In this document: piece after piece, positions 42,042-63,152 of the stretch
How positions within the stretch are numbered: position 1 is the first letter of the stretch
How the letters are laid out: every line of letters starts with the position of its first letter
Origin: Promethearchaeia archaeon
Lineage (GTDB): Archaea > Asgardarchaeota > Lokiarchaeia > Sigyniarchaeales > SOKP01
Reading direction: 5' to 3'
DNA: 64,000 nucleotides
Assembly: GCA_029856145.1 (NCBI GenBank)
Contig: JAHQWK010000004.1
Span: 128,001-192,000 of the forward strand
Position numbers and translations under genes: made by a program
The notes under the pieces: model-generated
The model's database searches: none
The model's input: only the letters and a program-made list of their open reading frames with translations
Told to the model about the DNA's origin: nothing

Positions 42042-42101
42042 AAATGTATTACATTTTATCATTTATTTACACAATTCTGATAAATTTAAAGGAAATATAA
42101 A

Positions 42102-43073: not shown

Positions 43074-44120
43074 CTAAATAAGATTCTTTTTTTTTATAAT
43101 TTTATAATACTTATCACGTTCTTGGCGTATAAGTTTTATTTCTTCTCTTAAATCTGTTAATTCTCGTTTAATATTCTCCTTTTCATTATTTACACCCAAG
43201 ATCCTATCGTTCAATTTCTTAATTTCGATTTCTAAATTCGGAACTGATTCACTGTCTCTTTTTGCTTTTAGTACTTGAAATTTTAACTTTTTATTAGTTT
43301 CATTCAATTTTTCAATTTCATGATTTAAGGTATCGTTTTCCATCTTAATTTTTTTAATTTCTGTTAGTAGTTGTTCAGCACCTTTTTCGATTTCATCTGT
43401 ATCACCTAATTTTGCTTTTAAGTTATTAATTCGTTCATCTTTCTGGTCCAATGCTAATTTTTGTACATTTAATAATCTAGTTGATTCTCTATTTTTTGAT
43501 GTTAAAGTGGCGTTATATTCATTTAAATCTGCCATTTGGTTACTCCAATTTTCTAATTTTGAATATAATCCAGTTACCTCATTTTTTAAAGCTTCAACGT
43601 TTCTTAAATGTTCAGATCTGTCAGAAACTAACATAGAAACTTTTTGAGCAAGATCATTAATTTTTCCTTTCTTTTCTCCTATTTCTTGTTCAAATCCTCG
43701 TCTCTCTTGCCAATAGGCATCGAGTTCACCTTTTTCTAACAACTCGTAGGATTTTGCAAATAGTTCTTTAAACTTTTTTTCCTTTCTTTGAGGTAATAAT
43801 TCAAAAGCAATTCTTCGTACTTGACCCTCAAAATTTTTTGGAAGTATATCCTCATCAGAAAGGAATACTGTAATTACATGATCTCCCTTCCCAATAAAAT
43901 GCTTGGAAGAATGACCCGTAAAAAAACTAGCTACACTAAGATCACGCTTTATTTGCATTTCTAAATAATTGGAACCTGTCCTCACCCTCTTATGTTCCTC
44001 AAAAACAGTCGAAAGCATTGAATCTGTTACTCCTAATTCTTCACAGATATTTTGCGGATATTCAACATCTTTAGTTAATTCTGATTTCTTATCTAGATTT
44101 AAAATCACAATTCCTTTCAA
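43074..44120 (-). CDS. Longin-like domain plus long coiled coil
   Basis: 'KGIVILNLDKK.......EYP' start; heptad-rich C-terminal half. Confidence 0.6.
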   Translation of the reverse strand: MKGIVILNLDKKSELTKDVEYPQNICEELGVTDSMLSTVFEEHKRVRTGSNYLEMQIKRDLSVASFFTGHSSKHFIGKGDHVITVFLSDEDILPKNFEGQVRRIAFELLPQRKEKKFKELFAKSYELLEKGELDAYWQERRGFEQEIGEKKGKINDLAQKVSMLVSDRSEHLRNVEALKNEVTGLYSKLENWSNQMADLNEYNATLTSKNRESTRLLNVQKLALDQKDERINNLKAKLGDTDEIEKGAEQLLTEIKKIKMENDTLNHEIEKLNETNKKLKFQVLKAKRDSESVPNLEIEIKKLNDRILGVNNEKENIKRELTDLREEIKLIRQERDKYYKIIKKKNLI

Positions 44121-44265
44121 TTTATATCCCTAATAAGTAATAAATTAGCTAATTCCAAATATGCAAATATAATGTTCACTCTAATATTAATTAAGATTAT
44201 CAAATTTTTTAAAATTGCTATATATCATTAATGCATTTCAAAAAAAAACCACAAACTATTAATCC

Positions 44266-44634
44266 TTACTTTAAGTATGTGTTCACCAATTCTCTAAATT
44301 CATTAACTTTAATTGGTTTAGAGATATATTCATTAAATCCTGCTGATAAAATTCTATCTTTATCACCTTTCATTGCAAAGGAGGTTACTGCAATTATTGG
44401 TATTTCCCTAAATTTCTCAATATTTCGTAGTTCGGTACATATATCAATTCCACTCATTTCTGGAAGTTGGATATCTAAAATAACTAAATCAGGATTCCCA
44501 GTTTTTATTAGTTCTAATCCTAAATCTCCACGTGTTTCTTCAAAAATTTCAACATTCGGTATTAATTTTAAAATTGCTCTAAACAACTTCATGTTTTTTT
44601 CATTATCCTCAATAACATACACATTTCTAGTCAT
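44266..44634 (-). CDS. Single-domain response regulator (DivK-like)
   Basis: IEDN, LDIQLPEMSG, AVTSFAMKGD, ISKP. Confidence 0.95.
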   Translation of the reverse strand: MTRNVYVIEDNEKNMKLFRAILKLIPNVEIFEETRGDLGLELIKTGNPDLVILDIQLPEMSGIDICTELRNIEKFREIPIIAVTSFAMKGDKDRILSAGFNEYISKPIKVNEFRELVNTYLK

Positions 44635-44798
44635 AAATAATAACCCCGATTCTCTTCTATTGAAATTATTAAATATTTTTTTTTCTAATTTTATTTTAAA
44701 ACCATTTTCTTGAAACGGTTATATAAATCATTTTTGATTTATTATTTAAATCTATTTTTAAAAATATCAAATTGAAGTAGCAAAATCAAAAATAATAA

Positions 44799-46340
44799 TC
44801 ATGATATAAATTTTGCTTTTAATTCTTGAGCAACCTTAGCAATTTTTTTCAGTTCTTCAAAATCTTTCTCTATCATTGATTTCATTATGTCAATCTTGAG
44901 TTTTTTAACTTTTTCAAGGGTTACAGAAAATTCCTTGTTGATATCATCATAGAGTTCATCGATGTTGTTATAAAGAATCTGAGCATGTTCTTTATCCATA
45001 ATCTCAGAGTTAATAATCATGTTTTGATATGAATTATTTAATTCATCTAACCAATTCCTTCCGAGTTCCTTTATTGGGAAAAGATCATCGAGTTTACCCG
45101 TTCTAATCGCTATTTCAAACTTATCTCTATAGTTTTCAAATAACTTCTTAAAATAATTATTGATTTTATTTTCAATAGCTTTTAAGTTAATATTTGGGTT
45201 CATAAAAAGAGTCACTGTATAATTGTCATAACCAAATATATTCATTTTCAAATTACTCCCTTTTAAGCCAAAACCTGTTAAGTTTTGAATGTTTAATTCT
45301 AAGGAAAACTTTTCAAGTGCGCTAATAAACATTGGAATTAATTCAAGATCAACTGGAATTATTGTATCGTCATTTGGCATACTTTGAGAAATAAAGTCTT
45401 TAAGAGCATCATCAAATAATTCAAGCTTTATTAAAGATTTTCCATCCTTATCTGCTATTATTGCTCCTATAATTGACGGTACTACTTCCTTTATTGCTAA
45501 TTTAGTAGGGACTAAACGCCTTTCAGATTTATTAAAAGGAGCAGATGAAAAACTGCTTAATATCTTATTGTATATAACTTTACCTTTATTTGTCAAGCTA
45601 AGAAGGTCTTTATTCTCAACGTGCTTTATTTCAATATGCCCTTTGTTAGCGAGGCTTTCAACAAGATAATTAGTTAATTTTTTAGGATGGTTTAATTTTT
45701 CATGAAGATTTTCTTTAGTAATTACAACTTCTTTATCAATTTGATGTATAAGTTTAATTGATTCATCAACAATATTTAATAGTAAACCTTCATCATCGGG
45801 TATAATATCTTGAAGACAGATTTTCATAATATCAATCAAATTTGAAAAAGTCTGGGTAAAATAATCCCTTTTTAAACTTGTAAATAAAAAATTTATTAAA
45901 TTTTCATTTGGAAATTCAGTTTTGACAAGTGATTTGATTTCCCTAACTTTTTTTTCACTCACTAGATCTATTTTATGTAATAAAACAAAGATATATGTTG
46001 AAGGTGTTATGGTATTCCTTAAATCTATTATTTTTCTTACGAATTTAAAAATTTCATCATAACTAGACACAATATCTATTACAACTAAAATCAGTTTAGT
46101 GCCAATGAAAATTCTTTTTTCATCTGTATCAAGCCATCGCTTATTTTCTTGTCCTGCAAGATCAAATATACCAACGTCTTGATTTAAACTAGGCAATCTC
46201 ATTATTAATGATTCTTCACCGTAGGTTGGTTCTAATGCATATTCTAATAATTTTGTTGAACTTTCACCTTCAAAAAAGACCTTACGGAGCGTTGTTTTTC
46301 CTGCACCGGGAGGTCCTACAAAGATAATTTTTTCACTCAT
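44799..46340 (-). CDS. Rag/Gtr-like small GTPase plus winged helix plus roadblock/longin-like domain
   Basis: GPPGAGKT, EPT, DLAGQ, HKID, FTS; 'IIGAIIADKDGKSL'. Confidence 0.8.
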   Translation of the reverse strand: MSEKIIFVGPPGAGKTTLRKVFFEGESSTKLLEYALEPTYGEESLIMRLPSLNQDVGIFDLAGQENKRWLDTDEKRIFIGTKLILVVIDIVSSYDEIFKFVRKIIDLRNTITPSTYIFVLLHKIDLVSEKKVREIKSLVKTEFPNENLINFLFTSLKRDYFTQTFSNLIDIMKICLQDIIPDDEGLLLNIVDESIKLIHQIDKEVVITKENLHEKLNHPKKLTNYLVESLANKGHIEIKHVENKDLLSLTNKGKVIYNKILSSFSSAPFNKSERRLVPTKLAIKEVVPSIIGAIIADKDGKSLIKLELFDDALKDFISQSMPNDDTIIPVDLELIPMFISALEKFSLELNIQNLTGFGLKGSNLKMNIFGYDNYTVTLFMNPNINLKAIENKINNYFKKLFENYRDKFEIAIRTGKLDDLFPIKELGRNWLDELNNSYQNMIINSEIMDKEHAQILYNNIDELYDDINKEFSVTLEKVKKLKIDIMKSMIEKDFEELKKIAKVAQELKAKFIS

Positions 46341-47658
46341 TTTTATCAAGCAGTTTTTTTTTCAAATAGTAAACATTTTTTAGTTTTAATCTAATTTGAC
46401 CAATTATCCATATTAGTTTATTTGCACTAAGGGTCTCAGAAAGGCAAATTAAATTTTTAAGACTAAATTTTTTGTAATTCAAGCTATTCATAATGATATT
46501 AAAATTAGAACTTGAGAGGATTAAATGCTCAATTTTATCATTCATAGCCATGTTTTCAAAAGTTTTATTCAACTGTGTTATAAGTCTATGCGAATGATTA
46601 ATAATCACTGTATTAAAATCTTTAGACATCGATTGTACTATTATATTATCATTTAAGTTAGTTATAAAAAACATTGTTTTAGAAAAATCTCCAATTATAT
46701 CATCCAATATCTTTTTTAGATATATATTTTCTTTAGAAAAACCACTTAATAGTTCATAAAATGCGTTGTATAGGCTGTATATTAATTTTGGATAAATGCT
46801 TGTGTAATAAATAGAAATGTCAAATTTTCTTTTTATTTCATTAGTAATTTCCTTTAGAATCTTTCGTCTAGACTCCTTTCCAATCAGATCTATTTTATGA
46901 ATAAAAAGGATTACCTTGGCACTATAGGATTTATTAGTCATAATATCTCTAACTTTTTGGATATCATCTACAATTTGTTGGGAGTTAGAAACCCAAGTTG
47001 GATAATCGAATAGATATATAATAATATCAGTATTTTCAAATGCTAAGATATGATCACTATCATTTTCATTTTCCAGTAAATAACTTAACTCTTGTCCAGA
47101 AGAATCAAATAATCCTAATTTTAAATCCAACCATGAGTAGACAGATGGTGATATTCCACGTGTTGGTTCTAAAGGATTATATAATAAATCCTTGGGATTA
47201 TATCCTTCAAAAACAATTTTCTTAATACTTGTTTTTCCCGTACTAGCTCTTCCTATTAATAAGAATTTTTTTGTTGACGATTCTTCAAAAAAGGTGCCAA
47301 TTCTTTCCATAAAATATTTTTTTCTGTCATCCCTGGTTTTTTGTAAAGCTTTTTTTGAAAAATCAATAAATTTAGCTTTCAATGTATAAAGGTTAATCTT
47401 TTCCTTTTCATCAAGAATAATTACAAATATTTCATATCCTACATCCGTAACTTTAGATTTATCACAAAAACTCAGAATGGTTTGATCTTCATATGTAATC
47501 TCAATAATTTCGTCTTTAGTAAAATCTTCTTCATATGAATGAGTCATATATATTTTATTAATTAATTCATCTGTTAATTTTAAATCTAAAGGATATTTCA
47601 TCTCAAGTGTAGCACCCATCTTTGTATCCCAACTGAAGAATGCTAATCCTATAATCAT
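46333..47658 (-). CDS. Longin/uDENN-like plus Rag-like GTPase plus roadblock-like protein
   Basis: 'IGLAFFSWDTKMGATLEMKYP'; GRASTGKT, EPTRG, DSSGQ, HKID, TSIY; start set by AGGTGA RBS. Confidence 0.8.
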   Translation of the reverse strand: MIIGLAFFSWDTKMGATLEMKYPLDLKLTDELINKIYMTHSYEEDFTKDEIIEITYEDQTILSFCDKSKVTDVGYEIFVIILDEKEKINLYTLKAKFIDFSKKALQKTRDDRKKYFMERIGTFFEESSTKKFLLIGRASTGKTSIKKIVFEGYNPKDLLYNPLEPTRGISPSVYSWLDLKLGLFDSSGQELSYLLENENDSDHILAFENTDIIIYLFDYPTWVSNSQQIVDDIQKVRDIMTNKSYSAKVILFIHKIDLIGKESRRKILKEITNEIKRKFDISIYYTSIYPKLIYSLYNAFYELLSGFSKENIYLKKILDDIIGDFSKTMFFITNLNDNIIVQSMSKDFNTVIINHSHRLITQLNKTFENMAMNDKIEHLILSSSNFNIIMNSLNYKKFSLKNLICLSETLSANKLIWIIGQIRLKLKNVYYLKKKLLDKNE

Positions 47659-47668
47659 GTTTAAATTA

Positions 47669-49804
47669 TCACCTATTTTTTTCCTCAAATTTTTTAGATA
47701 TACTAAAAGTAAATGTAGATCCCATACCTAAAACACTTGTGAAGGTAATTTCACCACTATGTAATTCAATAAGCCTTTTAGTTAATGACAATCCGAGTCC
47801 AGTTCCAGGCACAGATCGTACATATGTGGAATTAACTCTTTTAAATTCTTTAAAGATTAAAGGAAAATCTTTGCGTGCTATTCCTATCCCTGTGTCTCTT
47901 ACTTTAAAAACCCATTGATTATACCCTTCTTTAACTATTAATTCAACTTGCCCTTCAATCGTAAATTTAATAGCATTACTTACCAAATTCAATAAAATTT
48001 CCTTAAATCTAATAGGATCAGCAAATATAAATTTTTCTTCTTTTAATCCTTTAATCTTGAATTTTAAATCTTTTTTACTATATAAAGGTTTTAGACTGGA
48101 TTTAATTTGATCTATCATAGGGTTCAAAGGAAACTTCTGAATATTTAAGGAGATCTGTCCAGATTCAATTTTAGAGATATCCAATATATGTTTGATCATA
48201 TCAAATTGATGTTCAGCCGAACTTTTAATATCTGTTATAAATTCCTTTTGTTCCTCATTCAATTGCCCATAAACTCCTTCTAAAAGCAAATCAGCGAATC
48301 CAATTATAGCATTCAACGGAGTTCTTAATTCATGCGACATAGTAGCCATAAATTCTGTTTTGAACTGTGATGATTTTACAATTTGATCTAAATAATATTT
48401 CTGTTGTTCAAGGGCTTCATTTAATTCTCTTGTTCGAATTTGAACTTCGGTTTCTAATTCATCTTTAAATTTATGTTCTAAAAGCTCTACCTTCTTTTTT
48501 TCAGTAATGTCTTCAAAAATCAGTTGAATTAAAGTTTTAGCATCCTGCTTTATGACAGATGCTTGAATTTCAACCCACAATAAATCTCCTTTAAAAGTTT
48601 TAACTTTGACTTCTATAGGTTCAGGAAAATCTTTTAAAAAAGAGGTTTTGAAAATTTGTTTAAAATATTTTTTAATTTCTATATGAAAAATATTATTATA
48701 AGCATCAATGGATTTTCCAATGATATCACTTCGATCCAAACCGAATAAAACTTCTGTTGTAGGATTAGAATCTACAATAATACCATTCAAATCAATAATA
48801 AATATTGCATTAGGAGAATTATCAAATAAAGCCTTATATCTCTCTTCAGCTAATTTGCGCTCATTAATATTCCTTGAAATTATCAAGCCTTTCAATTCTT
48901 TATCTCTATCAATAATAATCTGTCCACTACACTCAAACCAGAGCCAATATCCCTCCTTATGCTTAAATCGTAATTCAATCACAGATTCTCCTGGTTGAAA
49001 TCCTTTCTTAAAAGTATTAACGGCTCGTTCAACATCCTCCGGATGAATATATTCTAGAGCAGAGTTTCCTATAACATCCTTCTTTCGATATCCTAATAAT
49101 CTGAAGACAGTTTCTTCATTTAAATATTCGAATTTAATTTTACGGTCAATTATAACTATGAGATCATTAATGTTTTCAATAATAAGACGATATTTTTCTT
49201 CAGATTCTTTTAACAGATTTTCCATTTTACTTCGTTCTAAGGCATTTCCAATAATTTGTGATGATATGCGTAAAGGTGACAAATCACTCTCTTTCCATTC
49301 TTTTTGTATTGAATCATTTGCATACCCTATAAATCCAGCTAAATCTGTTTTAATATAAAGTGGGAATACTAATAAAGATCTAATATTATTAAGGTTCAAT
49401 AATCTTTTTGTAGCTTTAGCTTCATCTGGTAAACTTGAAGCATCATAAACATTAATTATATTTCCCCTTCTAAGTTGCTCGTTCCACCATGGAAAACTAT
49501 GAACCCATGAATTTTCAAAGTATTGAAATAGTGGATTTATTCCTTCTGTACACCATTCATATGTGTGATTTAAATTAATTCTGTTATCATTAAAAATACA
49601 CAAAACAACACGACTAGCTCCACTTAAAATTCCTATATCACGTAGTGTAGCATTAATTGCATCATTAATTTCTATATTTCCAAGAAAACGGGAGGATATT
49701 GTATAGGCTAAAACCTCTAAACTTGACCAGTTCTTAAATATTCTATCTGCTTCTTTAACTAAATTTTTTTCAGTCCCTGAAATTTCTTTTTCTCCTAAAA
49801 ACAC
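47669..49804 (-). CDS. Cytoplasmic GAF-PAS-PAS histidine kinase
   Basis: SHELRTPLN H-box; N, DTGIG and GTGLGL boxes. Confidence 0.95.
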   Translation of the reverse strand: MFLGEKEISGTEKNLVKEADRIFKNWSSLEVLAYTISSRFLGNIEINDAINATLRDIGILSGASRVVLCIFNDNRINLNHTYEWCTEGINPLFQYFENSWVHSFPWWNEQLRRGNIINVYDASSLPDEAKATKRLLNLNNIRSLLVFPLYIKTDLAGFIGYANDSIQKEWKESDLSPLRISSQIIGNALERSKMENLLKESEEKYRLIIENINDLIVIIDRKIKFEYLNEETVFRLLGYRKKDVIGNSALEYIHPEDVERAVNTFKKGFQPGESVIELRFKHKEGYWLWFECSGQIIIDRDKELKGLIISRNINERKLAEERYKALFDNSPNAIFIIDLNGIIVDSNPTTEVLFGLDRSDIIGKSIDAYNNIFHIEIKKYFKQIFKTSFLKDFPEPIEVKVKTFKGDLLWVEIQASVIKQDAKTLIQLIFEDITEKKKVELLEHKFKDELETEVQIRTRELNEALEQQKYYLDQIVKSSQFKTEFMATMSHELRTPLNAIIGFADLLLEGVYGQLNEEQKEFITDIKSSAEHQFDMIKHILDISKIESGQISLNIQKFPLNPMIDQIKSSLKPLYSKKDLKFKIKGLKEEKFIFADPIRFKEILLNLVSNAIKFTIEGQVELIVKEGYNQWVFKVRDTGIGIARKDFPLIFKEFKRVNSTYVRSVPGTGLGLSLTKRLIELHSGEITFTSVLGMGSTFTFSISKKFEEKNR

Positions 49805-49840
49805 GTTTTTAATTTTTCCTCATTTAATTTTCATTTTATA

Positions 49841-52768
49841 TCATAAATATTTTAATAATTCTTCTACTCTAAGACTGTTTGTTATCTTTTTAGGGATATA
49901 AAAAGAAAATGTTGATCCCATCCCTAATTTACTTGTAAAAGAAATATTTCCACCATGTAAATTAATAATTCTCTTGGTTAGAGACAATCCTAAGCCTGAA
50001 CCTGGCATAGAATCAACATATGGAAATTTTACCCTTTTAAAATCTTTAAATATAATGTTAAGATCTTCTTTAGCAATTCCTATTCCTGTATCTTTTACAT
50101 TAAATTCCCAATTATCTTTTTTATCTATAAATTCAAATGTAACAGTCCCCCTTTCAGTAAACTTTATGGCATTACTTAGTAGATTATAAATAATTTGTTT
50201 AAATTTAAGTCGATCAGCTAATATAATCTGTTTTTTTTTCACATCTTTTAATTCAATCTTTAAATCCTTTTTGCTATATAGGGATTTTAAAGTTGAGATT
50301 ACTTGATTAACTAGATCATATAATTGGATATTGTCAATTTTTACAGAAACTTGCCCCGATTCAATCTTTGATATATCTAGGATATTTGATATCATATCCA
50401 ATAAATGTTTTGATGATTCTTCAATATCTTTAATGAATTCTAATTGTTCTGAATTTAATTGACCGTAAACTCCTTCCAGGAGCAAATCCGTAAAACCAAT
50501 AATGGCATTTAATGGGGTTCTTAATTCGTGAGACATAGTTGCTAAAAATTCTGTTTTAAAATGAGATGCTTTTAAAATCTGATCTAAATACAGTTTTTGT
50601 TGGTCAAGCGCAACTTTCAATTCTTTGGTTCTCAGTTTAACTTCCCTTTCTAATTCTTGACTAAACTTCTTTCTTAAAGCTTCTGCTCTCTTTCTTTCGC
50701 TGACATCCCGGAAAAAACCTTTAAAACCAATTATTTCTCCATTAGAATTATATCTTAAATATACAGAAGTTTCTTGATATATTCTGTCCCCATCTTTTCT
50801 TATAACTTGAGAATTAATTAATTTGAATCCTTCTCCTTTCTTATATAAATCATTATATACACGAAATACTCTCTCTTTGGTTTCTTCATCAAACACCATG
50901 CTATAACTCTTATTTAATAATTCTTCACGTGAATACCCGCTACTCTTACATAACGCATCATTGAAAAATGTGAAATTCCCTTCAAGATCAACTTCAAAAT
51001 ATCCTTCATTAATATTTTCAAGCACACTTCTATATTTTTCTTCTGACTCACTTAATTTTTGTTCAGCTTTCTTACGTTCGGTAACATCTACAAGTGCAGC
51101 CAAAATTGCGTCTTTTCCTTGATATTGGATAGTTTTAGAATAGGTGTCCATCCATTTTATTTCACCATTTTTAGTAAAAATCCTATACATTCTGTCGAAT
51201 TTCTCATCAATCAATCCTTTTTGTCTATGGCTCAATCGTTTTATAATAAGACCTCTATCCTCAGGATGAACAACATTGAGAAATTCTTTCATGGACCATT
51301 CTTTTATTTCTTTTTCAGAATATCCCAACATTTTCGTAATGGTTTTATTTATATATTGGATACTAGAATCCTTTATTATACAAATCCCCATAAAAGATTG
51401 TTCGGTGATCTCTCTAAAGTTTTCTTCAGATTCTTTTAAGCGTTGTTCTGATAATTTTCGCTCGGTTATATCTCTTGAGACTGTTATTGCTCTTAATTGA
51501 TCATCAGACCCCTTAAAGACTGATCCCGTTGTATCTACCCAGATATAATTTCCATTTCTGTGTCGAAGTCTTAATTCACCCCTTCCTCTGCCCCTTTTAA
51601 AACTCTCTCTTATTATTTTTAAAGCTCGCTTAATATCATCTGGATGGATAATATCATGTCGGGTCTTTCCTAACATATCTTTATTATTATATCCTAAAAT
51701 TCTTTGATATGTATTTTCATTTATATATTCATGTTCATATTTACTATTTAGAACCACAATTAAGTCATTGGCATTTTCAGTAATTAAACGATACTTCTCT
51801 TCTGATTCTTTTAACTTTTTTTCGATTTCAGCTTTTTCTGTAAGATCATTATAAATGGCAACAATCTCCCCAGAAGGAAGTTTATATACGTAGTTTTCCC
51901 TCCAACCAGCGATTCTCTCGTCCTGGTAAAGAGAAATAGGGTGATATAATGGTTCTCCTGTCTTCCACACCCTTTGAAAAACTTCAAAAAGACCAAATTC
52001 TTTTATACTTGGAAAGATTTTTGTGACTTTTTTACCAATAACCTCTTTTTTCTTAATCTTTTCTATTTTTTGAGCTGCTAAATTTAAATCTTTAAAAATA
52101 AAGGCTTCACCATTATGAATCGCCTTATATACTGCTACACCACTACTCATTGTGTTAAAAAGTTCTCGATATCTTTTTTCAGATTCTTTTAATATATCTT
52201 CAGTTAGTTTTCTCTCAATTGCGTTTCCAATTATTCGTGAAGAAATTTGCAATAGATTTAAATCCTCTTCTACCCAATTTCTCAACTCTAAATCATCATC
52301 GAATCCTATAAATCCTCCAATTTCACCATTGATATACAAAGGAATAGTTATGTTAGCTTTTACTCCATGATTTTTCAATAAATTTTTAATATTTTTAGCT
52401 TCTGGTGGAAGTCTTGAAACATCTTCAATAATTAGTGGGTTTCCTTTAAGAAGTTGTTTTATTACCCATGGAACTTCGTTCAATTGCAAGTGTTTATAAT
52501 CATTAATATGAGATTCTGCATTCACATTACACCATTCATGAGTATTTATCATATATGGTTTTTCTTTATTAAAGAGGAAAATGAAAACCCTACTGGCATG
52601 TATAAATTCCCCCATATCAGCAAGCGATTTATTTATAACTTTATCAAGTTCATAATTTCCAACAAATCGGGAAGAAATCGATGAAACTAGTTTCTCAAAC
52701 CTTAGTTTTCTTGTAATTGATATATCTTCTTTCACTTGTGTAGTTTTATCTCTCAAATTAGACACCAT
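49841..52768 (-). CDS. Cytoplasmic GAF-PAS(x4) histidine kinase
   Basis: SHELRTPLN, NAIKFT, DTGIG, GSGLGL; repeated HPD/ED and DITE. Confidence 0.95.
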   Translation of the reverse strand: MVSNLRDKTTQVKEDISITRKLRFEKLVSSISSRFVGNYELDKVINKSLADMGEFIHASRVFIFLFNKEKPYMINTHEWCNVNAESHINDYKHLQLNEVPWVIKQLLKGNPLIIEDVSRLPPEAKNIKNLLKNHGVKANITIPLYINGEIGGFIGFDDDLELRNWVEEDLNLLQISSRIIGNAIERKLTEDILKESEKRYRELFNTMSSGVAVYKAIHNGEAFIFKDLNLAAQKIEKIKKKEVIGKKVTKIFPSIKEFGLFEVFQRVWKTGEPLYHPISLYQDERIAGWRENYVYKLPSGEIVAIYNDLTEKAEIEKKLKESEEKYRLITENANDLIVVLNSKYEHEYINENTYQRILGYNNKDMLGKTRHDIIHPDDIKRALKIIRESFKRGRGRGELRLRHRNGNYIWVDTTGSVFKGSDDQLRAITVSRDITERKLSEQRLKESEENFREITEQSFMGICIIKDSSIQYINKTITKMLGYSEKEIKEWSMKEFLNVVHPEDRGLIIKRLSHRQKGLIDEKFDRMYRIFTKNGEIKWMDTYSKTIQYQGKDAILAALVDVTERKKAEQKLSESEEKYRSVLENINEGYFEVDLEGNFTFFNDALCKSSGYSREELLNKSYSMVFDEETKERVFRVYNDLYKKGEGFKLINSQVIRKDGDRIYQETSVYLRYNSNGEIIGFKGFFRDVSERKRAEALRKKFSQELEREVKLRTKELKVALDQQKLYLDQILKASHFKTEFLATMSHELRTPLNAIIGFTDLLLEGVYGQLNSEQLEFIKDIEESSKHLLDMISNILDISKIESGQVSVKIDNIQLYDLVNQVISTLKSLYSKKDLKIELKDVKKKQIILADRLKFKQIIYNLLSNAIKFTERGTVTFEFIDKKDNWEFNVKDTGIGIAKEDLNIIFKDFKRVKFPYVDSMPGSGLGLSLTKRIINLHGGNISFTSKLGMGSTFSFYIPKKITNSLRVEELLKYL

Positions 52769-52823
52769 TTTATCTCCTCAATCTTCAACCCAAATTTGAT
52801 GAAATGATTAATTTTTATTTAAC

Positions 52824-53705
52824 TTAATCTTCTTTCTCCTTAAGATAGAGAAAAATATTAAAAAATTCAATCTCTTTATTGAAATGTGAATTTTCCATAT
52901 TAATACAATCTCTTTCTAATCCAATTTTAAAATAATATGCTCTATTAGTTAATTTAAAGAAGTCGTATTCATCAAAACTTTCTACAACACCTAATTTCTC
53001 TAACTCTTCTATATAGAGTTTGGCCTTTTTAGAATTGATTTTAAATTTTTGAGATACATCATCGATACTATACTTTACATTAATATCGGATTTTAATATC
53101 ATAGATAATTGGTTTTTCAGCTTTTGAAATTCTTCACTCTTGATTGGAATTTTATTTCTTTTAATAATTAAATTTAAAATTTCTGAAATTATACAAAAGG
53201 TATTATAAAAGTTGTCTTTTGTAATAGATGTTTGATATATCTCAAAATCCTTACCTTGTGGATGTTGAATTGTAATGAACTCTTGGATAGTCTTTAATTT
53301 ACTACATACATAGGCATTACTCCTAAGATCTATTTTATGTAAAAAAGCAATAATATTACATGAATGAAGGTGAAGATCTTTTTTCACTTTATATATATTG
53401 ATTAAAAATTTAATTATAGATTCTAATGAATTTCCAATGTCAAAAACACAAATTATGATATTACTTTCACTAAATACATCTTTCCCTTTATCTGAAAACC
53501 AAGTTTCATTTTCTTGTCCTGCTAAATCAAAGACTCCTAAATCAGTATTAGATGTTGTATAAATTCTAGAGCTAATCCCTCTTGATGGTTGCAAAGGTTC
53601 TTCTAAAAGTGAAATTGGGCTCACTTGATCGAAATAGACTTTCTGGAGTGTTGTTTTTCCTACTCCAGATGGACCAACAAGAACAATTTTTTTTCTACTT
53701 ATCAA
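52824..53705 (-). CDS. Rag/Gtr-like small GTPase plus C-terminal winged helix
   Basis: GPSGVGKT, QPSRG, DLAGQ, HKID, TSI. Confidence 0.8.
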   Translation of the reverse strand: MISRKKIVLVGPSGVGKTTLQKVYFDQVSPISLLEEPLQPSRGISSRIYTTSNTDLGVFDLAGQENETWFSDKGKDVFSESNIIICVFDIGNSLESIIKFLINIYKVKKDLHLHSCNIIAFLHKIDLRSNAYVCSKLKTIQEFITIQHPQGKDFEIYQTSITKDNFYNTFCIISEILNLIIKRNKIPIKSEEFQKLKNQLSMILKSDINVKYSIDDVSQKFKINSKKAKLYIEELEKLGVVESFDEYDFFKLTNRAYYFKIGLERDCINMENSHFNKEIEFFNIFLYLKEKED

Positions 53706-53740
53706 AGGTATTAACCGATTTTTAAATAAATTTGTATTAT

Positions 53741-54424
53741 TTATTGCATGGAATTTTTTAGATATTTTTCTAGAGATATAATTATATCTTTACATGATTC
53801 TAACATCATTTCTATAAAATTTATTAAATTCTCATTTGATAGACTTTTATTTTCCTTTTTATCTTCTAAAATTAAATCACAAAATCCTTGAATTGTATTA
53901 ATACCACTACGAATTTGTAGATTAAATCTTTCTAATGGAAGAATTTCATTTTTTTTTATATAGATATAGCTTAATTCTTTAAAAAAACTCTCAAATACAT
54001 TTTTATCATCTGATAATATTTTATCTTCACCAATTTTACGAAACATCATTTCAATTTTTCTAAAATGTATTATAGGAATTAAAGGATATTCGATATCACG
54101 AAGTAAAATGATAGAATATAATTGCTTTCCACCTCGAGCATTATTATCTTCGACTTCGATTTTATAGATTTGAGAATAGAAATAATTAAAATCTAAAATT
54201 ACAAATTGATTTTTTGTATTTAAAGCATCTCTTAGAAGATTTCTAATAAAATGTTTCTGTCTTTCAATATTGACTGACGTGTATATAGCTCTTGGTCCTA
54301 GGGTATGATCATATTTACCAATAATTATTATGAAAGGATTTTTTTCTAAAATTGATTGAAAATTCTTATAAGTATCCGAAATTTCATTTTCTATGGATTC
54401 TTTTGTTAAATTTTTTTCTATCAT
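53741..54424 (-). CDS. Longin/uDENN-like domain fused to a degenerate HisKA (DHp) helix pair
   Basis: 'IIIIGKYDHTLGPRAIY'; 'NLQIRSGINTIQGFCDLIL'. Confidence 0.6.
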   Translation of the reverse strand: MIEKNLTKESIENEISDTYKNFQSILEKNPFIIIIGKYDHTLGPRAIYTSVNIERQKHFIRNLLRDALNTKNQFVILDFNYFYSQIYKIEVEDNNARGGKQLYSIILLRDIEYPLIPIIHFRKIEMMFRKIGEDKILSDDKNVFESFFKELSYIYIKKNEILPLERFNLQIRSGINTIQGFCDLILEDKKENKSLSNENLINFIEMMLESCKDIIISLEKYLKNSMQ

Positions 54425-54658
54425 AAAATTTCCTCATTTCTGAATAAATATTTCTTATCTATATCATTTTCAGAATAATACAATAGAGATTTTTGAATTA
54501 AAATTTTAAATTAATATACACTAAAATAGATACTAATTTGGTATAATAGTAACAAATTTTATTTATTAATTTATTTATTTTACTAAATAATTATTATTCA
54601 GTACAAAAAAATGATAATTTAGTAAAAATTTATAAAACAATAAAATTATTAGTAAAAT

Positions 54659-56158
54659 ATGTCAGAATCTGCAAAAACAATCATAAAATATTTCTGTGAT
54701 CGATTTCTTGACTTAGATTATTATCCAACTAATTTAAAAACCATATTAGATTTGGAATTAGATAAATTACGAAGTATAAAAGATGATGAAATAGAGAAAT
54801 TTAAAAAAATCGATATCGTGAGTCTACGCGACCTTACTAAACTAGAGGATTATGGATTTGAAAATTTGATTGAAAAACTGCATATTGAAAAATCAACTAT
54901 AAAAAATGCTCTTATCGCATCAACTCTTATATCTAACGCTTGGAATAAAAGGAATTTATATCTGAAAAAACAAAAATTGAAGGTTGTAGTGGCTGGTCTT
55001 GATTTCGCGGGTAAAACATCTCTCATAAATAGATTGATTAATGATTATAATTATAATGATATGGCTAATCTAGAACCCACAATAGGAGCAAATGTAGAGG
55101 AATATCAATCTGATAAATTAGATTTAATTCTCTGGGACCTTGGAGGACAGAAAGATCATGTAGACGAATATCTTGCTTCTCCAGAAAGTTTTTTTATAAA
55201 CGTAGATATCATGATATTTGTAATTGATTCACAAGATGATGTTAGATATTTAGAAGCTGTAAACTTTTTGAATGATATAATTGATATTCTCAAATTCTTG
55301 AAAGAGAATCCTTTTATTGTAGTTTTATTGAATAAAGCAGATTTAGATATCAGAAAAGATCCTGATTTTCAAATTAAGCTTGAATATCTAGCAGATAAAA
55401 TTTCAGAGATTTTTAAAAAATCTGAAAATCCTTGGAATTTTGAGATCATTCCCACAAGTATTTATAATTATTATTCTAATCAACCAGAAATAGTTAAAAG
55501 TATTAAAAATATCTTTTCAAAAGGAAAAGAGGAGACAGATAAAGAGATTGTGATACCTGACATTGAAGAAAAATTTCAGAAAATTTTAGATCTTAATCTG
55601 AAATTGATGGATAAATTCGTATCTGAGCTTGCGGAAATTAAACGAGCTTTACTACGATTAAATCCATCAGATATAACTCAATCTCTTTTTTCAGTTCCTT
55701 TCAAAAAAGTACAACCAGATTATATATCTCCAGACTTAAAATCAAATGGAAAAAGTAAAAAAAAGAAGAAGAAAGCTAAAATTGATGAATTTCAAAAAAA
55801 GAAAAAAACTAAAAAAGGTTCAGGACCTCCAAAACCACTGCCAACACACCCTTCTTTAAAAATAGAAGAAGAAAAAATAGTTAAAAACGAAAAACTCACA
55901 ACTAAGAAATTAGAAAAAGTTAAATCTTCTTTAAAATCAAAATCTCAATTATCTAAGATGTCATCTAGTCCACCAACAGCTCCACTAACAACACCTAAAC
56001 AGGATGAAATCAACTTAAATTCGCTTAAACCTCCACCTCCCCCTCCAAGAATTTCAACAAGTGGCAATATTAGATCAACCTCACCTAGAGGTGAAGTCCT
56101 TTCAGAATTAAAAGAAATGTTCTTGAAGCGAGGCTTAGTCAATCGTTATGACTTCTAA
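54659..56158 (+). CDS. Arf-like small GTPase with N-terminal HhH-like domain and basic/polyproline C-tail
   Basis: GLDFAGKT, EPTIG, WDLGGQ, NKAD. Confidence 0.85.
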   Translation: MSESAKTIIKYFCDRFLDLDYYPTNLKTILDLELDKLRSIKDDEIEKFKKIDIVSLRDLTKLEDYGFENLIEKLHIEKSTIKNALIASTLISNAWNKRNLYLKKQKLKVVVAGLDFAGKTSLINRLINDYNYNDMANLEPTIGANVEEYQSDKLDLILWDLGGQKDHVDEYLASPESFFINVDIMIFVIDSQDDVRYLEAVNFLNDIIDILKFLKENPFIVVLLNKADLDIRKDPDFQIKLEYLADKISEIFKKSENPWNFEIIPTSIYNYYSNQPEIVKSIKNIFSKGKEETDKEIVIPDIEEKFQKILDLNLKLMDKFVSELAEIKRALLRLNPSDITQSLFSVPFKKVQPDYISPDLKSNGKSKKKKKKAKIDEFQKKKKTKKGSGPPKPLPTHPSLKIEEEKIVKNEKLTTKKLEKVKSSLKSKSQLSKMSSSPPTAPLTTPKQDEINLNSLKPPPPPPRISTSGNIRSTSPRGEVLSELKEMFLKRGLVNRYDF

Positions 56159-56363: not shown

Positions 56364-57227
56364 ATGTCGAATAGTGACAAAAAAACAAAGGAAATGGAAC
56401 AATATGAGCAAGAGACTGGAAAACAAGCAATTTGGCAGGGAAAAACCACTAAGGGATTCCTAAGATGGAAAAAAGGTGAAAAAAATTATTATGCTGATAA
56501 AAAAAGAATTTCCGTTTATGTATCAAGTGAAACTGAAAGGAATTGGAAGGAATATATTAACACACATAAAATTACTTCATTTTCTAAACTAATTAGAGAA
56601 AGCGTTAATTATTATATTAAAGAAAGATCTAAATTTGGTGGAAATTTATTTCCGGATTTAGAAACTAGTACTAAATCTAAAATGACTCACACTTTGAAAG
56701 AAAAGCTAACAACGATAAAAGGATTTTCGCAATTATTACTTGAAAAATATAGTGGGAATTTAAATGATGAAATAAAAACGATTATTAATAATGTCTTGAA
56801 GGAAACTAAACAATTGGAAAATAAATTCATAGTTCAATTAGAAGAAAAAGAATTTAAACCTTCACAATATGATATTTTACTCATTGAAGATAATTTGTCT
56901 ACTATAGATTTATTGAAAAATTATTTTGAAAGCAAGGGGTATTCTTTTAAAGGAGTATTAACAGGTTTGGAAGGAATTGAAGAACTATCCTCGTCTACTC
57001 CAAAATTAATATTGCTGGATATAATTTTACCAGATGTTAGTGGATATGATATTTGTAAGGACATAAAATCTAATATGAATTTAAAAGAAATACCTGTATT
57101 TTACTTAACTGCTTTACCCGGTATTAACGTAGAGAATAAAATAGAAGAAACAATGGCAGATGGTTTTATTTTAAAACCTTTTGATTTACTAGATTTAGAA
57201 TTTTTATTTGATTATCTCCAAACTTAG
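56364..57227 (+). CDS. RHH-like plus DHp plus receiver hybrid response regulator
   Basis: RISVYVS...FSKLIRESV; THTLKEKLTTIKGF; IEDN, LLDIILP, ILKP. Confidence 0.8.
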   Translation: MSNSDKKTKEMEQYEQETGKQAIWQGKTTKGFLRWKKGEKNYYADKKRISVYVSSETERNWKEYINTHKITSFSKLIRESVNYYIKERSKFGGNLFPDLETSTKSKMTHTLKEKLTTIKGFSQLLLEKYSGNLNDEIKTIINNVLKETKQLENKFIVQLEEKEFKPSQYDILLIEDNLSTIDLLKNYFESKGYSFKGVLTGLEGIEELSSSTPKLILLDIILPDVSGYDICKDIKSNMNLKEIPVFYLTALPGINVENKIEETMADGFILKPFDLLDLEFLFDYLQT

Positions 57228-57277
57228 CACAAATAGCATTTAAGTCAATTAATTACTTGTTTTAAACATAGTTGTCA

Positions 57278-57394
57278 TTACTTATAATTGGAAGTGAAAT
57301 TTAAATCTAATTCTCCAACCACATTTGAGATATTATTTATTATATATTGATATCTCATTTCGGAATCATGTAATACATTTTCAATTTCAGTCAA
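57278..57394 (-). pseudogene. PAS-domain relic
   Basis: LTEIENVLHDSEMRYQYIINNISNVVGELDLNFTSNYK* resembles LSESEEKYRSVLENINEGYFEVDLEGNFT in the neighbouring kinase. Confidence 0.55.
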
Positions 57395-57763
57395 TTTTTA
57401 TACAACCCTTTTAATTTTTAAGAAGATTAGTAAATTAAGAATTAAATCGTCTTTTTTTTAGTAATTTACGTTATTTTTAATCCTAATCTTTTACCCAATT
57501 TTGAAGTAAGTTAACTTTTTATTTAATAAATTCGATGATAATGTTGAAACTAGATCATAGGCATATTTTTTTGCACTACTAAACTTGATTTAGGTAACCT
57601 TAAAAATAAAAAATTTTATCTCTAGTGTAAATATTAAAAAATTTTGCATCTGATTCAACTTGATAATAATCACTATAATTTCGAGAATTTCAAAGTGTAA
57701 TCGATCATACTTTATTATGTAAAGTGTTACGCAATTATTAAAAGAAAAGAGTATGAATTTAAC

Positions 57764-58714
57764 ATGCCGGAAAAAATAACTTTGATAGGAAGAGCGGGGG
57801 TTGGAAAAACAAGTATACTTAGAGTATTATTCGAAGGAGAATATTCTAAAGATCTTATGATTAATCCGCTTGAACCTACACGTGGTATAATACCTAAGAT
57901 TTATTCATGGATGGACATAGAATTAAGTATTTTTGACACTTCCGGACAAGAATTACCATTTCTGTTAGAGGATGAGAATGAACAGATGATCGCCTTTGAT
58001 AAGGTTGCTATTGTTATCTACATCTTTGATTATCCAAATTGGATAAATCAATCTCAAGATATTGTTAATGAAATAAACATGGTATTCAAAATATTAAAAC
58101 TTAAAAATATTGAAAATAATCTTGTATTAATCTTTCATAAGATTGATTTAATAAAACAAAAAGCTAGTGTTAATTACCAGTTAATGAAAAGTGGAATTAA
58201 AGAACGATTAAATCTCCCAAAAAATATACCTCTTTACCTTACAAGTATATCTCCAGAATTAGATTTCACATCATATAATGCTTTTTCTGAGATATTGAGT
58301 AGTTTATCACAAGATTCCAATAATTTAAAGTTAATTGTTGATGAAAAGATCAGGTTTCTCTCAGAATCGATCTGTTTTATTACTAATAAAGAGAATTTTA
58401 TAATAGTTCAATCAATTACACAAGATTTCAATACAGATTTAATTTATAAATTATATATTTTGGTTTCCTATTATGTAAAATCTATTTCTACAAATAGTGA
58501 TTTTGAAAATGTTATTCATTCAATTGATTCAACGACCCTTACTTTAAGCTTAATTGTTAGTAATCTTGAAAATTTAAATCCAAATCTTAAAAACTTAGTT
58601 TTAATATCGGATACTAATAACAAAGATGATTTATTCAAGGTAAAGGAAAATATAAAGTTAGAGATTGAAAAATATTATGATTCTGCTGATAATAAAAATA
58701 TCAAAAAGAAATAA
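57764..58714 (+). CDS. Rag/Gtr-like small GTPase plus roadblock-like domain
   Basis: GRAGVGKT, EPTRG, DTSGQ, HKID, TSI; paralog of 46333..47658. Confidence 0.85.
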   Translation: MPEKITLIGRAGVGKTSILRVLFEGEYSKDLMINPLEPTRGIIPKIYSWMDIELSIFDTSGQELPFLLEDENEQMIAFDKVAIVIYIFDYPNWINQSQDIVNEINMVFKILKLKNIENNLVLIFHKIDLIKQKASVNYQLMKSGIKERLNLPKNIPLYLTSISPELDFTSYNAFSEILSSLSQDSNNLKLIVDEKIRFLSESICFITNKENFIIVQSITQDFNTDLIYKLYILVSYYVKSISTNSDFENVIHSIDSTTLTLSLIVSNLENLNPNLKNLVLISDTNNKDDLFKVKENIKLEIEKYYDSADNKNIKKK

Positions 58715-58813
58715 CAACTGAAAATCACTATATTTTCTTAGGTAATTTCTATTCTAATTCTGAAAATTGTTAAGGAATATTAAACATAATATATTTCTAT
58801 TAAGATCCTTCAT

Positions 58814-59102
58814 TTAAGTGTAAATATGTGAAAAAGTCTCTACAGTTTTTACAATATCTGTAGCTAAATAATTTTACTTAAACACTGAAGCAAAGAAAGC
58901 ACGATCTCTTGGGTTGAAATAATTATACCCAAACTTTTTCCATTCAATACTGACTTGTAAAGGGGCAAAAAGAGAAATCTGATCTTTCATTAAATTCATC
59001 AATAATAAGTTTCTCTCTTGCAGAGTATTATTAGATATAGTATTTAATAAAATACATTCACTAAAAAAATCCCAAGAATCCTTAAATTGAATACAGAATT
59101 TT
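58814..59102 (-). pseudogene. Diverged copy of the 3' end of the amidohydrolase gene
   Basis: ...IEWKKFGYNYFNPRDRAFFASVFK*NYLATD...FSHIYT; internal TAA at 58874-58876. Confidence 0.9.
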
Positions 59103-59108
59103 TATATA

Positions 59109-59205
59109 GAAGGAAGGAGAAAAGGATTATTATTATATTGATAATAAAAGAAATTCTGGCTCTGTATCAAGTGAAACTGAAAAGAATTGGTAGAAATTTA
59201 TGAAT
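59109..59205 (+). pseudogene. Fragment of a paralog of 56364..57227
   Basis: YYIDNKRNSGSVSSETEKNW*KFMN versus YYADKKRISVYVSSETERNWKEYIN. Confidence 0.75.
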
Positions 59206-59210
59206 TATTT

Positions 59211-60764
59211 TTATTGTCCCTTTATATCATCATCTATATTCTTTATAATTGGTAGTGAAAAATGGAATATACTTCCTTTATTTTTACCTTTTGATTCAAC
59301 CCATATCTTCCCTCCATGTAAATCTATAATCTCTTTTGAGAAATATAGCCCTAATCCAATCCCATCAGAAATTATGTCCCAACCTTTTCCATATCTCTCA
59401 ATCTTTCCAAACGGTCTAAATAATTGTTCTATTTCTTTTTTCTGTAAACCTATTCCATTATCTTTAATAGAGATTATTATAGATTTTTTATTGATTCGAG
59501 ATTGAATAGTAATATTACCTTCTTTAGGTGTAAATTTAATTGCATTCTGTAAGAGATTTATAAATACGCTATAAATTTTATTTTTATCAAAATCTATAAA
59601 TAGTTTATCATGAATATCTATAATTAATGTGTGTTTTCTTAATTTAATCAATCCCTCCATCTCTGCTATACTCTCTTTAATTAAATCATGTAGATTTTCC
59701 CGATTTAAATTTAATTCTATTAACTGCCTATCTAACATTATACATTCTATGAAATGATCTATAAGTAATTTCAGCTTATCTGCTCCTTTATCGATCTTCT
59801 TCAAAGATGATATTGTATCATTATCTAGATTTTTCCTAGTCTCTGTTAGTAAAAATTTAGAAAATCCCTTAATAGATATGAGAGGTGTTTTGAACTCATG
59901 TGAAAACCTTGTTAATAAATTTGATTTCATTTCTTCCATCTCTTTTCTTTCAGTAATATCTTGCACCCATAATCTTAGAGTCGCCAAAGATCCATCATCT
60001 TGATAATGAGGTAAGATTTTTCCTGATAACCAAATAATTCTCCCTTCTTTGTTAATTATTTTAAACTCTATATTTCTTTCATCAAATAATTTTTTAATAT
60101 TATGAATATCTTCTGGATATACCGCTTTATAAAAAACTCCTTCATTTTTTAGTTCTTCTTGGGTATAACCAATAATCTCTAACAATCTAGGATTAATATA
60201 AATAACTCCTCCTTTTGTAGAATCAATCTCCAATAACCCCATTGAAGATGTTTCGATTAAATTCCGATATTTTTTTTCCGATTCTTTTAATTTTTGCTCG
60301 GCTTTCTTATGTTCGGTAATGTCTCTTAAGAATCCTTTATATCCGATTTTTTCTCCCTTAATATTGTATCTTAAATAATCAGAGGAATCAACAAATAATT
60401 TTTTCCCATTCTTTGTGATAATTTCATATTCACCTGAATTAAATCCTTTTCCTGCTTTATATAGGTTGTTAAACCCACTTAATACTTTCTTTCTAGTTTC
60501 TTCATCGTATAATTGACTATATTTCATATTCATTAAGTCTTCATTTGTATAACCAGTACACTCTCGTATTACGTTATTGCAATAAGTAAAATTACCTTTA
60601 AGATCAAGTTCAAAATAACCATCCTTAAGAATTTCTATTATATTCTTATATTTTTCTTCTAATTTTTTAATGGATTCTTCTAATTCTTTTATTTGTATAA
60701 GTAAATAATTGCTATCCCTTTCATATTCGTTCTTATTTTTTTCTAAATCTTGTTTAAAATGAAT
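59211..60764 (-). CDS. PAS-PAS histidine kinase, probable ATT start at 60764
   Basis: SHEFKTPL, NAIKFT, DNGIG, GIGLGL; the first PAS extends upstream of ATG 60533 in an open frame of 77 codons. Confidence 0.9.
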   Translation of the reverse strand: MHFKQDLEKNKNEYERDSNYLLIQIKELEESIKKLEEKYKNIIEILKDGYFELDLKGNFTYCNNVIRECTGYTNEDLMNMKYSQLYDEETRKKVLSGFNNLYKAGKGFNSGEYEIITKNGKKLFVDSSDYLRYNIKGEKIGYKGFLRDITEHKKAEQKLKESEKKYRNLIETSSMGLLEIDSTKGGVIYINPRLLEIIGYTQEELKNEGVFYKAVYPEDIHNIKKLFDERNIEFKIINKEGRIIWLSGKILPHYQDDGSLATLRLWVQDITERKEMEEMKSNLLTRFSHEFKTPLISIKGFSKFLLTETRKNLDNDTISSLKKIDKGADKLKLLIDHFIECIMLDRQLIELNLNRENLHDLIKESIAEMEGLIKLRKHTLIIDIHDKLFIDFDKNKIYSVFINLLQNAIKFTPKEGNITIQSRINKKSIIISIKDNGIGLQKKEIEQLFRPFGKIERYGKGWDIISDGIGLGLYFSKEIIDLHGGKIWVESKGKNKGSIFHFSLPIIKNIDDDIKGQ

Positions 60765-63121: not shown

Positions 63122-63152
63122 TAATTTATCCTCCAGTTTTTAATAATGGTAA

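Follow-up and report, generated by a model that had tools for sequence, protein, structure and literature searches.

A Lokiarchaeia gene cluster that probably links two-component signalling to Rag-like GTPases

At positions 43074-60764 of a 64,000-nt stretch of DNA from a Promethearchaeia archaeon (GCA_029856145.1, contig JAHQWK010000004.1, 128,001-192,000 of the forward strand; hereafter the window, whose numbering is used throughout), histidine kinases and receivers lie interleaved with Rag- and Arf-like GTPases. A functional link between this phosphorelay and the Rag-like GTPases is well supported, because the genes keep conserved, repeatedly shuffled neighbourhoods in relatives, co-occur among genomes and include a fusion protein, LonDHp, in which a longin domain is joined to a DHp hairpin. 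An earlier note on this DNA had proposed a His-Asp phosphorelay wired to GTPase switches, and that connection is supported as a functional one, whereas its extension to all twelve genes of the cluster as one unit is not. We tentatively favour, at somewhat less than an even chance, a single cytoplasmic module in which two kinases, HK1 and HK2, would set the phosphorylation of a receiver that, seated on the pseudo-DHp of a LonDHp dimer, would tune an arginine-finger GTPase-activating protein (GAP) for Rag-like GTPases.

LonDHp and its candidate partners

LonDHp (53741-54424, minus strand, 227 residues) consists of a longin domain (residues ~29-165) and a DHp hairpin (~162-226) devoid of the histidine, and is predicted to serve as GAP and adaptor. 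Its AlphaFold model (predicted local distance difference test, pLDDT, 87.8) shows the longin followed by a two-helix hairpin, and its best fold matches are NPRL2 (8fw5_B, Z 12.3, root-mean-square deviation (rmsd) 3.0 over 135 aligned residues), Npr2, a Loki longin and the FLCN-complex chain 6nzd_H (Z 11.1); its structural neighbours are Promethearchaeota proteins. Pfam returned a weak Folliculin match on 53741-54424 and found the same family, below cut-off, in 49 of 50 orthologues, and HisKA in 16 of the 50. Invariant across these orthologues are G43-P44, which fall in the b1-b2 hairpin, and R97, whose b4-b5 loop connects strands 82-92 and 100-110. The GAP longins FLCN, NPRL2 and SMCR8 are distinguished by a GP motif in this hairpin with an arginine finger next to it, a combination absent from longins of the guanine nucleotide exchange factor (GEF) type; longin GAPs need two longins, and GP/Arg longins are also present in Asgard archaea, with the partner GTPase left open (PMC12290439). 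By fold, GP motif and position of the R97 loop LonDHp falls among the GAP-type longins, and the DENN or NPRL2 C-terminal region that characterizes FLCN/GATOR1/CSW proper is missing from its 227 residues. We predict that LonDHp is a GAP of the FLCN/NPRL2 type. Neither FLCN nor NPRL2 was reached when LonDHp profiles were searched against PDB sequences, and the CheY matches obtained were short and due to chance.

The candidate GAP substrate is RagW (52824-53705, minus strand, 293 residues), a Rag-like G domain with a winged helix and no roadblock. A modelled complex of two LonDHp chains with RagW and GTP/Mg scored 0.71 versus 0.00 for the best control, in a test that 58 of 80 solved complexes and 2 of 110 mismatched pairs pass. 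The runs share at least 93% of contacts with a partner pLDDT of at least 84; in them, LonDHp residues 38-44 and 97-100 touch RagW at P-loop residues 13-14 and at both of its switches, the R97 loop being placed at the P-loop and switch I. The model supports binding of LonDHp to RagW.

On the side of the relay, HK1 (47669-49804, minus strand, 711 residues, H491) and HK2 (49841-52768, minus strand, 975 residues, H747) are soluble kinases of GAF-like-PAS-PAS-HisKA-HATPase and GAF-(PAS)n-HisKA-HATPase architecture, respectively. The core of HK1 is 62% identical to that of HK2, and all catalytic boxes are kept in both and in a third kinase, HK3, with intact H, N, G1, F and G2 boxes and an ExxT motif in HK2. 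The DivK-like single-domain receiver (REC, 44266-44634, minus strand, 122 residues) conserves E9-D10, D54, T84 and K106, and its best solved match is DivK itself (1m5t, E 6e-27). In LonDHp the position of the histidine is occupied by L, M, I or V in 49 of 50 orthologues (L169 here), and the pseudo-DHp retains R+3, N+7, G+11, F+12, D/E+14, L+15 and E+18, the H+3 Arg (R172) again in 49 of 50. Positions H+3, +7, +11, +12, +14 and +18 face outward in a DHp. HK1 and HK2 are the only kinases of this genome with the R+3/N+7/G+11/F+12 helix, and the LonDHp hairpin is nearer to their clade than to that of HK3 in 50 of 50 orthologues, in a comparison where two of the scored positions define the kinase clades and LonDHp stands outside that definition. 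DivL of Caulobacter, which likewise lacks the His, depends on its H+3 Arg (R553) for binding to DivK~P (PMC4211667).

Distant longin-DHp homologues vary at these positions. A phospho-accepting His is found in P0008, P0012, P0019, P0021, P0025, P0046, P0049 and at L047:723-1403; P0026 and P0034 have a Tyr in its place, as in DivL, and P0008 and P0012 have the His and lack the Arg finger. PAS-longin-hairpin and longin-PAS-PAS fusions stand beside Rag- or Arf-like GTPases at L111:7535-8701, L112:7959-9230 and L116:4106-5380, which suggests direct ligand control of the GAP. Because distant homologues keep the His and others carry PAS fusions, the GAP-type longin has been joined to sensory inputs more than once.

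Among the GTPases of the cluster, RagW, RagWR, LonRag and a peripheral Rag-roadblock protein have HKID as G4 and match PF04670 above cut-off, and ArfL has NKAD. Of the Rag/Gtr architecture (HKxD plus a C-terminal roadblock), the G4 motif is present in all four, and a putative roadblock is recognizable by alignment in RagWR, weakly so in LonRag and Rag-roadblock, and lacking in RagW. RagWR (44799-46349, minus strand, ~513 residues) comprises a Rag G domain, a MarR-like winged helix (193-276), a roadblock (~290-407), assigned by topology and by alignment to RagA and LokiRagO through residue 407, and a helical tail; its fold matches RagD (Z 18.5) and MarR (Z 13.4, rmsd 1.6 over 84 residues). Together with a Pfam match to the winged helix on orthologues, this MarR-like fold bears out the winged helix-turn-helix first read from the sequence. 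RagW is a roadblock-less paralogue of RagWR, with DLAGQ as G3 and with Ser at G2, where its orthologues have Ser (14) or Thr (9).

LonRag (46333-47658, minus strand, ~441 residues) combines a putative longin, a Rag G domain with PTRG and HKID motifs, and a roadblock-like C-terminus. Its profile matches human RagA best (E 7e-26), the alignment extending into the C-terminal domain; direct roadblock matches to the C-termini of LonRag and Rag-roadblock are weak (E 0.2). The N-terminus of LonRag has a WD..G hairpin and no Arg finger, and could be a non-catalytic partner longin. ESM Atlas feature matches for the putative longins of LonRag and of 43074-44120 were <0.9, and profile comparisons among the island's putative longins, and among its roadblocks, were not significant; of the longins originally claimed, that of LonDHp is confirmed by its NPRL2/FLCN fold and the other two are weak leads.

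ArfL (54659-56158, plus strand, 499 residues) is made up of an N-terminal domain, a G domain, a Lys/Pro-rich linker and a conserved C-terminal helix. Its motifs (GLDxAGKT, PTIG, WDLGGQ, NKAD, TSIY), Pfam scores (Arf 82 bits versus Gtr1_RagA 78) and best solved matches (LokiRagO, E 6e-17, then Arl3, E 6e-15) point to a G domain intermediate between Rag and Arf instead of the former plain label 'Arf-like'. Asgard 'Arfl' proteins have been placed near Rag, outside Arf (PMC11914678). The ArfL C-terminus (~56020-56155) holds a Pro run and a conserved helix, R..I.SELK..F.KRG, in 31 of 33 orthologues, and the same Pro run and helix end a 149-residue Pro-rich protein and an ArfL paralogue encoded elsewhere in this genome (G000 C18:40581-41030 and C9:503512-504750). 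The helix may resemble the actin-binding WH2 motif, for which Pfam gave no match and a paper search nothing relevant.

Conservation and extent of the core

All twelve open reading frames claimed in the earlier note are present at their positions and strands, and its eight-gene minus-strand run, from LonDHp down to a longin-coiled coil gene, indeed has mostly short gaps or overlaps here: 35 bp between LonDHp and RagW, 55 bp between RagW and HK2, 36 bp between HK2 and HK1, 10 bp between HK1 and LonRag, an 8-bp overlap of LonRag and RagWR, 164 bp between RagWR and REC, and 145 bp between REC and the longin-coiled coil gene. LonRag probably starts at ATG 47658, as in its orthologues, and RagWR at ATG 46340. 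ArfL is divergent from LonDHp, with 234 bp between them, and 22 such LonDHp/ArfL spacers contained no conserved motif. The plus-strand genes occupy 54659-56158, 56364-57227 and 57764-58714, with HK3 convergent to them. Across the cluster Pfam detects five Gtr1_RagA matches above cut-off, three HisKA+HATPase_c kinases with PAS domains, two REC domains, GAF in HK1 and HK2, and HisKA on 56364-57227; transmembrane helices are found in none of the proteins.

The clustering of signalling genes is far above chance. The genome, which has a Lokiarchaeia-like content, yields 54 small-GTPase, 23 HisKA and 19 REC matches, and the 17.7-kb island holds 5 of the 54 and 4 of the 23 (Poisson P ~1e-5 each); elsewhere in the genome a HisKA is found within 10 kb of only 2 of 49 GTPases. 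The best marker of the system is LonDHp, single-copy here and present in 54 of 161 genomes of the class, in 18 genera and three families; these and the following profile counts are descriptive, as related genomes are not independent and many are incomplete. Rag/Arf-like GTPases occur at 50 of the 55 LonDHp loci and two-component genes at 46, with both gene classes at 43; several of the remaining 12 loci are short contigs. Gene order and orientation vary from locus to locus, and LonDHp homologues at ~20% identity sit in similar clusters. The neighbourhood check that had been called for finds the genes still linked in three families. It also disposes of a single conserved operon, as order and orientation are shuffled between relatives, and of co-orientation of the eight genes as a conserved trait: LonRag and RagWR are neighbours at most loci and the pair is often inverted. 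RagW occurs at 31 of the 55 loci and Rag-roadblock at 3.

The other components are largely inherited with LonDHp. Among the 161 genomes, the DivK-like receiver was detected in 51, the HK1/HK2 clade in 51 (47 of them with LonDHp), RagW/RagWR in 59, LonRag in 43 (40 with LonDHp) and ArfL in 45 (39 with LonDHp). All four markers LonDHp, HK clade, receiver and RagW/RagWR are present in 43 genomes and none of them in 92, a pattern repeated within genera (all four in 9 and none in 41 genomes of g1; all in 14 and none in 24 of g22). In two genomes, G024 and G111, the receiver and RagW/RagWR were not found, and LonDHp is interrupted by stops. Since the RHH-DHp-REC regulator and the longin-coiled coil gene occur without the core, Rag-roadblock is rare and HK3 belongs to another kinase clade, the core comprises 44266-56158, that is LonDHp, RagW, HK2, HK1, LonRag, RagWR, REC and ArfL; the former four genes are peripheral, and on the same grounds a single twelve-gene unit is not supported.

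The LonDHp tree mostly tracks genera, with some mixing (18 changes against a minimum of 16 and a shuffled mean of 33). No tRNA was found in the 64-kb window and no mobility gene among its open reading frames, the GC content of the island (25-30%) lies inside or just under the range of its flanks, and the same flanks recur in several genera. Because of the absence of a tRNA, the ordinary GC and the shared flanks, we reject a recent mobile island, also for want of a mobility gene; this looks like an old locus that was lost as a block and occasionally moved.

At two further loci, L039:3763-15322 (G025) and L040:1119-15564 (G032), LonRag, RagWR and a small GTPase are found within a few genes of a GP/Arg longin that has no DHp, and neither a kinase nor a receiver occurs within 20 kb. 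These loci are possibly a GTPase module without a relay.

How the relay could reach the GTPases

In the favoured model, the soluble GAF/PAS kinases HK1 and HK2, whose motifs are observed and whose pairing with the receiver is suggested by co-inheritance, would phosphorylate or dephosphorylate the DivK-like receiver. Having no output domain, the receiver would dock on the His-less DHp of the LonDHp dimer, as DivK~P does on DivL, to judge by the retained docking residues. The LonDHp homodimer would then act as a GAP of the FLCN/NPRL2 type with R97 as its arginine finger, a step for which fold and motifs are observed and docking is modelled, and its two longins would form the platform that heterodimers make in FLCN-FNIP2, NPRL2-NPRL3 and SMCR8-C9orf72. 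Receiver binding would alter GAP activity and thereby set the GTP/GDP state, most likely of RagW and RagWR and possibly of LonRag and ArfL. The outputs, more speculatively, would probably be the winged helices, through DNA or protein binding, and the Pro-rich tail of ArfL. A fuller version, which we consider rather unlikely, holds that this is an entire pathway of proto-GATOR/folliculin type that predates eukaryotes, in which the phosphorelay directly gates a homodimeric Arg-finger GAP via a DivL-like pseudo-DHp, the Rag-like GTPases are winged-helix transcription switches and, in the His-retaining relatives, gating proceeds via phosphorylation of the GAP itself.

Several points weigh against the favoured model. 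The equivalence of R97 with FLCN R164 is putative, drawn from topology and a sub-threshold Pfam match, and with two distant homologues lacking the Arg and several having a His the family is mechanistically non-uniform. A DHp signature of the R+3/N+7/G+11/F+12 type is common in bacterial kinases. The GP/Arg longins without DHp near LonRag and RagWR, kinase-free in G025 and G032, indicate that the GTPase part can stand alone. The score of the modelled complex may come from likeness to solved longin-GAP complexes, and close cousins of the true partner (e.g. RagWR or LonRag) could pass the test too, leaving RagW as a candidate substrate only. Finally, DivL tells DivK~P from DivK via its PAS and CA domains (PMC4211667), and LonDHp is without both.

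Of the alternatives, the one that survives best, itself unlikely, is that LonDHp is a constitutive GAP whose hairpin serves for dimerisation only, while relay and GTPase switch share a process and meet elsewhere, e.g. through direct contact of the receiver with a GTPase or a promoter complex. It accords with the DHp hairpin being a dimerisation module first, with the need of longin GAPs for two longins, and with the DHp-less and PAS-fused GP/Arg longins that accompany similar GTPases in other genera. Yet the docking positions H+3, +7, +11, +12, +14 and +18 keep the pattern of the island kinases, which dimerisation alone would not need, and LonDHp is degraded in G024 and G111, the genomes in which no receiver was found.

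Signals might also flow in reverse, with the GTPases upstream: a GTP- or GDP-loaded Rag-like protein on the longins would set the action of the pseudo-DHp, and the relay would be the output. The pseudo-DHp could then sequester or dephosphorylate the receiver, or heterodimerise with the DHp of HK1/HK2 and inhibit them. The fusion, the co-inheritance and the interface fit both directions, several distant homologues keep a His and could join phosphotransfer, and the interactions of bacterial conservons depend on kinase and GTPase activities alike (PMC4316618). What makes this direction quite unlikely is that the receiver lacks a domain for output and the loci revealed no other conserved target, that the kinases have GAF/PAS inputs of their own, and that the winged helices of the GTPases look like outputs.

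With the wiring otherwise as in the favoured model, the longin could be a GEF or a scaffold instead of a GAP, inasmuch as longin platforms are mainly GEFs (PMC10933270), two homologues have no Arg, and RagW, in which Ser often replaces the G2 Thr, may cycle unusually; the combination of GP and invariant Arg, reported to be specific to GAP longins (PMC12290439), and the position that the model gives the R97 loop, next to the P-loop and switch I, render this improbable. Very improbable indeed is the absence of any functional link, by which a genome rich in these families (54 small GTPases, 23 HisKA) would simply have a hotspot of expanded paralogues that gathered unrelated signalling genes and a decayed duplication and whose order relatives share by descent, because the linkage outlasts repeated shuffling, inversion and divergence to 20% identity, the whole core disappears together within genera and leaves the flanking genes in place, and one protein, LonDHp, fuses both systems.

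Outlying genes and related systems

The peripheral genes have distributions of their own. The putative longin-coiled coil protein (43074-44120, minus strand, 348 residues), at the left boundary, is encoded in 94 of 161 genomes and in 45 of 53 of the genus, also where the core is absent, as a resident gene. The RHH-DHp(His)-REC regulator (56364-57227, plus strand, 287 residues) occurs independently of the core in 124 of 161 genomes, and was excluded from the core for that reason; its proposed ribbon-helix-helix domain is corroborated by RHH_1 in 6 of 20 orthologues, its DHp is nearer the HK3 clade in 13 of 16, and its architecture has already been reported for Lokiarchaeum (PMC5847659). The Rag-roadblock GTPase (57764-58714, plus strand, 316 residues) is a paralogue of the C-terminal part of LonRag (40%), and its family is also found in core-less genomes. 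HK3 (59211-60764, minus strand, up to 517 residues, PAS-PAS-PAS-HisKA-HATPase) belongs to the genome's common 'KTPLISIKGF' clade, separate from HK1/HK2, and as a member of that other clade it was rejected as core. Its frame is open over 59211-60770 with the first ATG at 60533; the start is probably ATT 60764, because GAGGT precedes it and the part upstream of ATG 60533 is homologous to other kinases. Between Rag-roadblock and HK3, a decayed duplication remnant (58814-59205, no strand assigned) joins the last 95 codons of the gene at 61574-63121 (79% amino acid identity, one stop) to the 5' portion of an RHH-DHp-REC gene and attests to local rearrangement near HK3.

Beyond HK3, 61574-63998 holds an amidohydrolase-like gene (read from motifs, with no Pfam or NCBIfam match) and a YbdK/glutamate-cysteine-ligase-like gene (weak NCBIfam matches), a pair that flanks the cluster in at least 5 genera. 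To the left of the cluster, 37397-42941 encodes a tandem pair of membrane-anchored proteins, with repeats that look parallel beta-helix-like by eye, and a second tandem pair with the metallo-beta-lactamase fold. A second, smaller conserved grouping, in which Rag-roadblock and a 345-residue neighbour face a 552-residue kinase-like gene, is seen at L130 (G000 C2:143000-160000), L126 and L127, and also in the core-less genome G001. In genus g5 (L035:8404-11163 and L036:1433-4186) a LonRag paralogue is flanked on one side by a small-GTPase-like gene and on the other by a putative TATA-binding-protein gene.

LonDHp has the longin fold, the GP motif and the b4-b5 Arg in common with FLCN-FNIP2 (acting on RagC/D), the NPRL2-NPRL3 pair of GATOR1 (RagA/B) and SMCR8-C9orf72 (Arf1), and a two-longin platform on a Rag-like GTPase is likewise predicted here. 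In contrast to these eukaryotic complexes, it has a kinase-derived hairpin in place of the DENN/NPRL2 C-terminal region and is modelled as a homodimer, the proposed input is a His-Asp relay instead of lysosomal amino-acid sensors, and the output is not mTORC1. With Caulobacter DivJ/PleC-DivK-DivL the system shares two kinases, a DivK-like receiver and a His-less DHp with an H+3 Arg; DivL, however, has PAS and CA domains and signals to CckA, whereas the hairpin of LonDHp has neither domain and is attached to a GTPase regulator. By analogy, the system would work like a FLCN/GATOR1 GAP fed by a DivK-DivL-like relay, as a member of neither family.

Small GTPase-histidine kinase coupling in prokaryotes is also known from the conservons (CvnA-D) and from Myxococcus Frz-RomR-MglA/MglB (PMC4316618). 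Those systems use MglA-family GTPases and a stand-alone roadblock (MglB/CvnB), as opposed to the Rag-like GTPases and longin regulator found here, and conservons have a membrane kinase and no receiver (PMC4316618), as opposed to soluble kinases and a receiver. Having no transmembrane helix and no stand-alone roadblock gene, and with Rag-like GTPases and a receiver, the cluster is not a conservon; the analogy drawn initially holds for the kinase-GTPase coupling and fails for the architecture, so that it remains a loose likeness. With Rag/Gtr proteins and with LokiRagO (PDB 8YL2) and LokiRagM (8ZLA/9M28) the cluster's GTPases share the Rag-type G domain, HKxD and, putatively, the roadblock C-terminus, to which RagW and RagWR add a winged helix as an insertion or tail, RagW being without a roadblock. 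The longin-GTPase-roadblock architecture has been described before, and MK-D1 GTPase genes are generally not in operons with regulators (PMC10933270).

LonDHp is of a kind already shown: an Asgard NPRL2-like longin fused to two-component domains appears in Fig. 5c of Liu et al. (bioRxiv 10.1101/2020.10.19.343400), who proposed that Asgard growth regulation is centred on two-component systems and eukaryote-like regulators. The conserved cluster, the cognate GTPase and pseudo-DHp docking are not described in the accessible text of that preprint and of PMC12290439, and no paper on the cluster or its kinase-GTPase pairing was found in the literature searched, which took in few subscription journals. 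Longin/two-component fusions, longin-Rag-roadblock proteins, GP/Arg longins and bacterial kinase-GTPase coupling are known parts; the core/periphery split, the match of docking residues, the His-retaining homologues and the complex model are added here.

The native GAPs and GEFs of Asgard GTPases are stated to be unidentified (PMC11914678). A candidate GAP, its candidate substrates and a candidate input upstream of them are encoded together here as small soluble proteins, a set that is suited to reconstitution in vitro and makes the hypothesis of Liu et al. directly testable. Because the LonDHp family was found in Lokiarchaeia only, with no member found among 239 further Asgard genomes that were searched, it may be an innovation of that lineage rather than a system of the eukaryotic ancestor. 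If the favoured model is true, the longin Rag-GAP platform that underlies human folliculin and GATOR1 worked in archaea under two-component control, and, should the reading as a proto-pathway hold, the cluster would display the form of that platform before heterodimeric FLCN/GATOR1 and mTOR.

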